Shown: piece by piece, positions 1 through 3,000 of the stretch
Layout: each line of letters starts with the position of its first letter
Position numbering within the stretch: the stretch's first letter is position 1
IMG/VR virus record: IMGVR_UViG_2713896799_000013
Direction: 5' to 3' (one strand)
DNA length: 36,212 nt
Source: a virus
Taxonomy: Duplodnaviria > Heunggongvirae > Uroviricota > Caudoviricetes
Made by a program: the position numbers

Positions 1-3000
1 ATCCGTAAACTGTGCAGGCAGGGTACGCATGGCCGCTTTATACTGCCCGACGGAAATCCCGGCTTTTTGTGCAGCCAGCGCCTGACGGCTCAGGCCCTGT
101 TCAACAGCACTGGCGGTTTTTCTGGCGTCGGTATCCAGTCCTGAAAAATGACGCCTTACCCGGCTTATCTGCTCATCGAAACGGACCGCATCCAGACTCA
201 GGTCAATAACAAGATCACCAACCGGCTGGGACATATCTCACACCTCCAGGAATCCCCGCTGAAGCCATCATTAATGCGACATCATCCTCACTGACATCCA
301 CCACATCCGCAGAAGGTGAAATATCGCCCCCTCCTTCCCCCACCAAACCGGATGCCTCCGGCAAGTCCTGCCCGCTTTCTGCATCAGCATTTTTTCCTCA
401 TCCCGGCCATTTTCCGCTCTGCTCTTCCTCACGCCGGGGGGCAAGCAGACTGAAGTCCGAGGGATACATATCCGGATCGCAAAAAAAACAGGCTGAGTAC
501 GGTGTACGTCACCCGGAAAAATGCATATCCAGTTGGGTATCGTGAAATAATGCGTGCGGTAAAACAACGGTGCCAGTCGGCATATTCGGTGGATGTCATC
601 CCGGCAAGCATGGCGCGCCAGTCAGGCCTCCCCATCTCACGCGCCAGTCTGAGGGCAAAATTCAGCTCGCCGTCGAAGACTTTCCCGCAGAAAAATCATC
701 ATCAGTAAGCGCATTATTTTTCGCCACTTCGGTGATATCCGTATCCACATGAACAGGCTCACTCATCCCGGACAGATGCAACACCACGTCTTCCGCCCGG
801 GCAATGGCATCAGCAGGCCAGGTGGTCAGGACTTCCTGCTCAATCTGCCATCACAGCCTCATTCATTGACGGTGACTCCGTTTTCTGCGGATGGTTATGC
901 CACAGGGACATCGCCACCAGAAACGCCCCGGTTCTGACAATGTCTTCCACGCTCACCTGCAGGTTGCCGCTGGCTTCAGACTCTTCTGCCCGCCGTTTCA
1001 GGAGGGCAAGATGCTCGATACGCTGCAGCGCAGACAGTTCAGAAAGCGTGACGGACACACCGTTATATTCAAATTGTTCTGTTTTCAGAAACATGTATAA
1101 CCTCCGTTTACCCTGCAGCGCCCGCTTCAGTAACGGTGACTTCAGCTACCGTGGCAAACTGACCATTACCGGAAATCACGGGGATACTCACTTTTCCAGC
1201 CTTAACCCCCGTCACAGTGATCACCATATCTTTCACAGCAATGGTTCCCGTTGACGGATCGGCGGAAACCGCTCTGAACGTCTTGTCGGTTGCACTTTCC
1301 GGCCTCAAAAGAAACAGTCAGGGTGGTTGCTTTCCTTTTTCCACGGTACCGGATGTCGGCGTCACCTTAATTGCAGTGACCGGCGTAATTTCGCTGCGTT
1401 CTTCCGCCACGGAGGGTTTGCCCACGTTGGTAACTTTCACTGTTCGGGTGATCACTTCTTTCGCCGTCACGGCCTTACCGATACTGCTGACCCAGCCACG
1501 AAACACATCCACCGTGCCATTCGGAAAACGGATTTTATAGGCCCGGACATCGCCGCTTTCAAACCAGCCTATAAGCCCTTTCTGGCCTTCCTCTCCCGGT
1601 TTCCAGGCCAGCGTAAAACTGGTATCACCCGCAGATTTCTGTCCCTGCCCGGTCGCGGTCCAGTCCGCGTCTTCATCATCCAGGTAGTTATCATCGTAGG
1701 ATTCTGCCGTCATCTCGCCGGGTGTCAGATCCTTCACCTTAGCCAGTCGCTGCCAGTCATCGTCTGACAACGGGTTTGCATAAGCATCACCCGTGCCGGT
1801 GTAAACCCACAGTGTGGTACCGGCACCTTTTACCGGCGCCAGGGGATTTGGTGTTGCCATATCGTCCTCACATCTCGTATGTAATGGAATAAGTCAGATC
1901 TGCAGAACTCCACAATGCCATATCGTCATCACGACGATAGTCATAGCCCTGCGTAACCATCGTGGTAATCATGCCTGCCAGTGCAGGGATCGCCGCCATC
2001 GCCGGGTAAATCCGGCTTTCCATCCACTGATCAAGCTCTGAATCCGGTACCTGTGCCGGTAAAAACACCTCAATATGCAGTGTGGCCCGCCAGGTATCTG
2101 CATCCAGCTCTTCACCGGTATACTCTGCATCCGTCAGATAAACCGCGACCGCGGGAAAATCCTCTTCGTCAAAAACAACGGGGCGACCATCAAACAGCGT
2201 CGCCCCGTGTTCATGCTGCTCCAGTGCATCCAGCACTGCAGCACGGATATCAGTATGTTTCATCGTTTTATCGCAATCCTCAGTTGTTGTTTCAGCGCAT
2301 ATGCCAGTTCTCCGGGCAGGCGTTCACGCCGGATACGGTCAACGTTTTCATCAAACGCCTGTTTCAGTGGGGCCGCCATCGGGATTTTCACCACATCAAT
2401 GGGGTAACGGTTTTTCCCGGCCACACGCTGCATTACATGCCAGCGACCATTTTTTAATCGCTGAATAAATGCCCGCTGATAACGATGCTGACCGGCTTTG
2501 AGTATGCTGTTCGGACGACGGCCCAGCATCCTGATCCCCAGCTTAATCACCGGGAGATCACCGCGTTTAACGATAATTTTGGCATTCGGATTTCTGACCG
2601 TGGCCCGTTTCAGTCTGGACCGTTCCTTTACCAGTTTCCGGCTCACCCTGGTCTCCCGGGCAACCTGTGACGAAGACTGATTAATCGCCGTTGTGGCCAC
2701 GCGGTTAATGGCCATTGCTGAAGCCGCCGGAATGGCGTTTTTACGAACCCGGCTCAGATTTTCAATCGCCTGATCAAGCCCTTTTATCGCCATAATTCAC
2801 CCTGCGTTTATCGTCGCCGGTTAACTGCCGGTGGTTGCCCACGGTTGAGCCAGAGATAACAACTGCCCCCGTCATCCGGAGAAACACGATCCACCCAGAA
2901 TGTCTCACCATTAATGGTCAGCGTGTCACCACGCCGCACAGCACGAACCGTATCCGTCCGTACAAATAATGACGGGCAGCTTCCTTCAATACGGACCCCG

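Follow-up and report, generated by a model that had tools for sequence, protein, structure and literature searches.

The window, by which we mean the whole stretch of 36,212 nucleotides analysed here, begins with the late genes of a lambda-like Escherichia coli prophage. These genes, all on the minus strand, fill its left end and run H (start only)-T-G-V-U-Z-FII-FI-capsid and onwards; their positions are collected in Table 1 together with the individual lesions found in T. Pfam assigns PF16461 (lambda tail tube) to the V piece at 1318-1860 (E 3e-70) and Big_2 (Ig-like) to the C-terminal V piece at 1108-1308 (E 2e-9). PF06894 matches the G open reading frame (ORF) at 840-1094 (E 2.7e-35, profile positions 1-81 of 126), and G lies directly upstream of the T frame, between the tail tube gene and the tape-measure gene. 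The T fragments of the window are too broken to give any Pfam match, PF06223 included; the undisrupted G-T fusion built from E. coli GB089, the closest complete genome, matches both PF06894 and PF06223. V, G, T and the slippery site were correctly named in the earlier note, which had been made from the sequence with no database searches. The genes themselves are typical of the lambda V, G/G-T and T families, with nothing novel about them.

Table 1. Features at the left end of the window and lesions in T, the latter placed by alignment with E. coli GB089
Feature	Position	Strand	Remarks
H, tape-measure gene	1..234	-	first 78 codons, cut by contig end; TMP_2 fragment of 78 aa
T, tail assembly gene (-1 frame part of G-T)	215..635	-	broken by 10 indel events
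G, tail assembly chaperone	662..1094	-	ORF 840-1094 (84 aa); inserted C at 847/848
V, major tail tube gene	1108..1860	-	ORFs 1318-1860 (180 aa) and 1108-1308 (66 aa)
G GGA AAG slippery heptamer	680..686	-	G/G-T programmed -1 frameshift site, intact
Indel-bearing patch	337..1333		13 events, 14 inserted or deleted bases, 0 substitutions against nearest relative
T insertion	337		C4 to C5
T insertion	371		C2 to C3
T insertion	404		C2 to C3
T insertion	407		C to CC
T insertion	410		T3 to T4
T insertion	417		C between G and T; no simple run-length change
T insertion	481		A7 to A8
T insertion, 2 bases	564-565		CA inside A5 run; no simple run-length change
T deletion	510		AA to A
T deletion	544		A4 to A3

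The genes around these three had been described as clean, and their lengths uphold this. U (131 aa), Z (177 aa), FII (117 aa), the capsid gene (342 aa), the decoration protein (115 aa), the protease (501 aa), the portal (530 aa), the terminase (642 aa) and the first 78 codons of H all equal their counterparts in relatives, and the alignment shows zero differences from GB089 over window 1-336, which takes in the H part.

In lambda, G-T is reportedly made alongside G by a programmed -1 ribosomal frameshift (Levin, Hendrix and Casjens 1993; Xu, Hendrix and Duda 2004). The corresponding G GGA AAG heptamer of the GB089 relative has the correct frame, lies close to the 3' end of G and leads to a 290-aa G-T fusion. 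The window has an ordinary, intact site of the same kind, GGGAAAG, downstream of the break in G; as recorded, it is out of frame with the G start owing to the insertion at 847/848.

Further to the right, an IS1 element (at about 14855-15552) occupies the lysis region beside the lysozyme gene. L009 and L011, two prophages of the same layout from other strains, have it too, which marks it as a genuine lesion or insertion in this lineage of prophages. At 17611-17764 the late regulatory region carries two tRNA genes of the prophage, tRNA-Gly(TCC) and tRNA-Thr(TGT); the GB089 prophages share this arrangement. The right prophage end and integration site (34154-36212) comprise the integrase gene, tRNA-Ser(CGA) at 35232-35321 and mtfA, whose stop codon coincides exactly with the end of the window.

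Frame disruptions in V, G and T

Lesions were placed by global alignment of window 1-2400 with GB089, which matches this part at 99.4% over 2392 bases. The alignment contains 0 substitutions and 13 indel events (14 bases), all of them within 337-1333 and each of 1-2 bases. The run length of an existing base is changed in 11 of the 13 events. Inserted bases number 11 against 3 deleted, C makes up 8 of the 11 inserted bases, and the patch as a whole has an error density of about 1.3%.

V lacks one base at 1333 (C3 to C2) and carries one extra base at 1303 (C to CC), 30 nt away. The ten codons between them are out of frame and include a TGA at 1318-1320, past which the original frame resumes as the 66-aa ORF. 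Outside the out-of-frame stretch V does not differ from its relatives in either the tube domain (N-terminal) or the Ig-like domain (C-terminal). Both Pfam domains are present but split by 30 nt with a stop, where the relatives have one chain of 250 aa. An in-frame TGA bracketed by -1 and +1 indels had been proposed from the sequence, and this is borne out, with the spacing corrected from about 25 nt to 30 nt. The single insertion in G (C to CC) follows codon 82 and brings a stop after 84 aa, the product reading '...NEAVM' and then 'AD*' in place of 'QIEQE...'. ORF and alignment here agree with the earlier description of a +1 change after about codon 82 that truncates G ahead of the slippery site. 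T does contain the multiple frame changes suggested for it, but the four to five counted then were too few, since the alignment gives 10 events.

The frame disruptions are confirmed as present in the sequence and as clustered far beyond chance. The 13 events fall in 997 bp, whereas the remaining near-identical sequence, about 21.8 kb long, has 0 (Fisher p about 2e-18; range for the clustering 1e-11 to 2e-18), and the ratio of indels to substitutions is 13:0 inside the patch against 0:27 outside it (Fisher p about 8e-11). No window-specific indels were found in 1334-12368 and 15568-26000 in comparison with two matching GB089 prophages, and the differences there are substitutions only. The near-identical part has a single further gap, at 7427, which is an annotated portal frameshift of GB089 itself, and gaps elsewhere in the window belong to truly divergent mosaic segments or are lesions of GB089. 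The confinement of the disruptions to V, G and T, as first noticed, stands, with every event inside 337-1333 and none in the near-identical control sequence.

One of the GB089 prophages (NZ_CP013663.1, 2452000-2490500) is annotated with frameshifts of its own, in the genes for the portal, a DUF1627 protein and the integrase, and its portal lesion is the 1-base gap at the equivalent of window 7427. These annotations indicate that public records of such prophages commonly contain single frameshifts, real or otherwise.

Relatives and origin of the contig

A look-up of the exact terminase protein of the window gave nine other loci, from eight assemblies. The region is reached by 8 of the 9, and all eight lack every indel that they cover; two of the eight are short contigs of 11-13 kb, one of them starting at window base 512. 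V (250 aa), G (143 aa) and T (137 aa) are intact in 7 of these eight loci. One of these loci, L010, differs from window 1-6887 by a single substitution and by exactly the indels of the patch. Wider searches gave the same picture. Window 325-575 was found at 99% identity or above in 0 of 5,426 complete E. coli genomes (best match 96%), an exact 31-mer spanning four of the insertions was absent from GTDB species representatives and from IMG/VR, and the truncated G (84 aa) and a T fragment (68 aa) had no exact-product record in the gene-position index.

Two of the changes have counterparts elsewhere. Nearly all relatives have A7 at the tract 481-488 in T; the change to A8 recurs in OkiPb01695 (NZ_AP042570.1), a complete genome whose T carries a frameshift annotation. 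An exact-product look-up also found the identical 180-aa truncated V, without the Ig-like domain, in both prophage copies of GCA_047262155.1. The latter was rejected as corroboration of the deletion at 1333, because the nucleotide change is a different one (T5 to T4 in the adjoining run, against C3 to C2 in the window) and because other genes of that assembly, the tape-measure gene and the capsid gene, are fragmented as well. Window 1328-1340 (minus strand GGAAAAAGGGAAAG in relatives) is a homopolymer-rich run at the boundary between the tube and Ig-like domains of V. With a -1 change in two unrelated assemblies, it is probably a recurrent site of long-read error and could be a slippage hot spot. 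Both recurrent sites are homopolymer runs, and recurrence therefore cannot separate real slippage from a repeated consensus error.

The window is identical to L009 and L011 over 6378-20261. Over 776-6377 it has 30 substitutions relative to these two prophages, at which it carries the same allele as L010 and L001, prophages of another type. Two readings fit this switch of allele: true recombination among co-resident lambdoid prophages, or a cross-over made in assembly from one repeat copy to another close to the end of the contig.

Window 1-20261 is base-for-base identical to positions 1-20261 of LFZJ01000005.1 (locus L012, reverse complemented), a 2.78 Mb contig in assembly GCA_001264215.1 of E. 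coli O2:H27 strain IH57218, and the window as a whole corresponds to the first 36,212 bases of that contig. Since base 1 of the window is base 1 of the contig, the patch lies 337-1333 bases from the physical contig end. The contig stops inside the tape-measure gene H; the annotation of the locus calls no V, G or T product, and its 78-aa tape-measure fragment abuts the contig end. E. coli genomes that have the V-G-T module carry a median of 2 copies of it, and up to 9.

IH57218 is a STEC/ETEC strain that was sequenced from PacBio RS CLR reads only (P4/C2 chemistry) and assembled into 17 contigs by HGAP pre-assembly, PacBioToCA and Celera Assembler 7.0 (PMC4551483). The reads are deposited under SRA study PRJNA269579. 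The record LFZJ00000000 stayed at the stage of a gapped draft, in which optical mapping revealed one misassembly (PMC4551483). With regard to a polishing step, the words 'Quiver' and 'polish' are absent from the text of PMC4551483; a frameshift in another strain was checked by its authors with Sanger sequencing to exclude sequencing error (PMC4551483).

Origin of the disruptions

The disruption cluster is almost certainly an assembly artefact of a known kind and not a real feature. Its location at a contig end, its indel-only and insertion-biased profile, its absence from relatives and the sequencing method together indicate that the disruptions in V, G and T are very probably single-base sequencing or consensus errors of a long-read draft and not prophage decay. 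The earlier note had offered both readings, decay or indel errors; the spectrum of changes, their privacy to this sequence and the contig end support the second and argue against the first.

Errors left over from single-molecule reads are single-base indels, with insertions in excess. The contig end in H falls within a late-gene module common to several co-resident lambdoid prophages, and read support would be thinnest and most ambiguous at a contig end bounded by such a repeat. A consensus built there may keep the errors of single molecules, as single-base indels with more insertions than deletions and mostly as changes of run length. The true genes are most likely an intact V of 250 aa, a G of 143 aa and a G-T of 290 aa made by a -1 slip, as in close relatives. 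The observations follow this pattern in that the patch is at a contig end in a repeat, its changes are indels and not substitutions and lie mostly in base runs, none of them except A7 to A8 is reproduced elsewhere, and the platform is an error-prone one. Three points run the other way. The outermost 336 bases of the contig are free of errors and the errors show no simple rise towards the end, the A7 to A8 tract is shared with OkiPb01695 and could vary for real, and the occurrence of the 180-aa V in GCA_047262155.1 could mean a real slippage hot spot.

It is very unlikely that the IH57218 prophage is defective and that V, G and T acquired genuine frameshifts through lost selection. A spectrum of 13 indel events and 0 substitutions within 1 kb is not that of neutral decay, and outside the patch there are substitutions only. 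The bias towards insertion (11 in, 3 out) is opposite to the deletion bias known for bacterial pseudogenes (Mira, Ochman and Moran 2001). The prophage does have a real-looking lesion elsewhere, the IS1 in the lysis region common to L009 and L011, and annotated frameshifts in tail or portal genes also occur in related prophages from other complete genomes (the portal in GB089, T in OkiPb01695), but the pattern seen here occurs in no relative, including the prophages that are identical over 6378-20261, and the patch coincides with a contig end of a PacBio draft without reported polishing. A mixed spectrum, a deletion bias and lesions common to clonal relatives, the marks of a genuine pseudogene, were not found in the patch.

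An intermediate case, in which most of the indels are errors and one or two are real changes at slippage-prone runs (481-488, A7/A8; 1328-1340, A5G3A3), is extremely unlikely. Recurrence is what speaks for it, of A7 to A8 in OkiPb01695 and of a -1 change in the run beside 1333, with the same 180-aa product, in the two prophage copies of GCA_047262155.1; yet both of these assemblies show signs of indel problems of their own, as the fragmented tape-measure and capsid genes of GCA_047262155.1 illustrate, and consensus errors of long reads, too, recur at homopolymer runs. The deletion at 1333 is moreover paired with the nearby insertion at 1303, and both lie in the dense patch.

We consider it extremely improbable that all the indels are real and arose in a localized burst of single-base changes over about 1 kb (T, G and the 3' part of V), for example by error-prone repair or replication slippage, which would leave a prophage unable to build tails while its head genes are intact. 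Two further candidates were rejected: programmed frameshifting, for which only the G/G-T site at 680-686 exists, accounts for 0 of the 13 events, and diversity-generating or phase-variation mechanisms, weighed on general knowledge, give substitutions or changes at long simple repeats and so do not match scattered 1-base indels in runs of 1-4 bases.

With the disruptions read as errors of the draft, the only use of the observation is as a quality flag. V, G and T at the start of LFZJ01000005.1 are not evidence of a defective prophage in IH57218; they should be left out of pseudogene tallies, and the prophage should not be called defective on their account, before the reads are re-examined. At contig ends and repeats, unpolished long-read drafts inflate pseudogene counts and likewise calls of 'intact versus incomplete prophage'. 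No new biology is implied by the disrupted V, G and T.

Comparison with known systems

The module shares with the tail genes of lambda the order Z-U-V-G-T-H, the domains PF16461 and Big_2 in V (on two separate pieces in the window), PF06894 in G and, in the fusion built from GB089, PF06223 in T, and the G GGA AAG heptamer, which has the correct frame in relatives and is present at 680-686 in the window. It differs from lambda itself in having about 77% DNA identity to it, and in that V, G and T are interrupted in the window as deposited. Cryptic or defective lambdoid prophages provide a second comparison, through the neighbouring tRNA-Ser and mtfA, the IS1 in the lysis region and the frameshifts annotated in some relatives, but the spectrum here is indel-only, insertion-biased and private to one draft contig end, and is a poor match for natural decay. 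The third is with the residual indels that unpolished PacBio CLR and other long-read assemblies have at contig ends and in repeats. Apart from the clean outermost 336 bases and the events at 417 and 564-565, which are not simple run-length changes, the patch resembles these: it consists of indels only, with more insertions than deletions, mostly as changes of run length, at a density of about 1%, over about 1 kb beside a contig end and within a multi-copy module.
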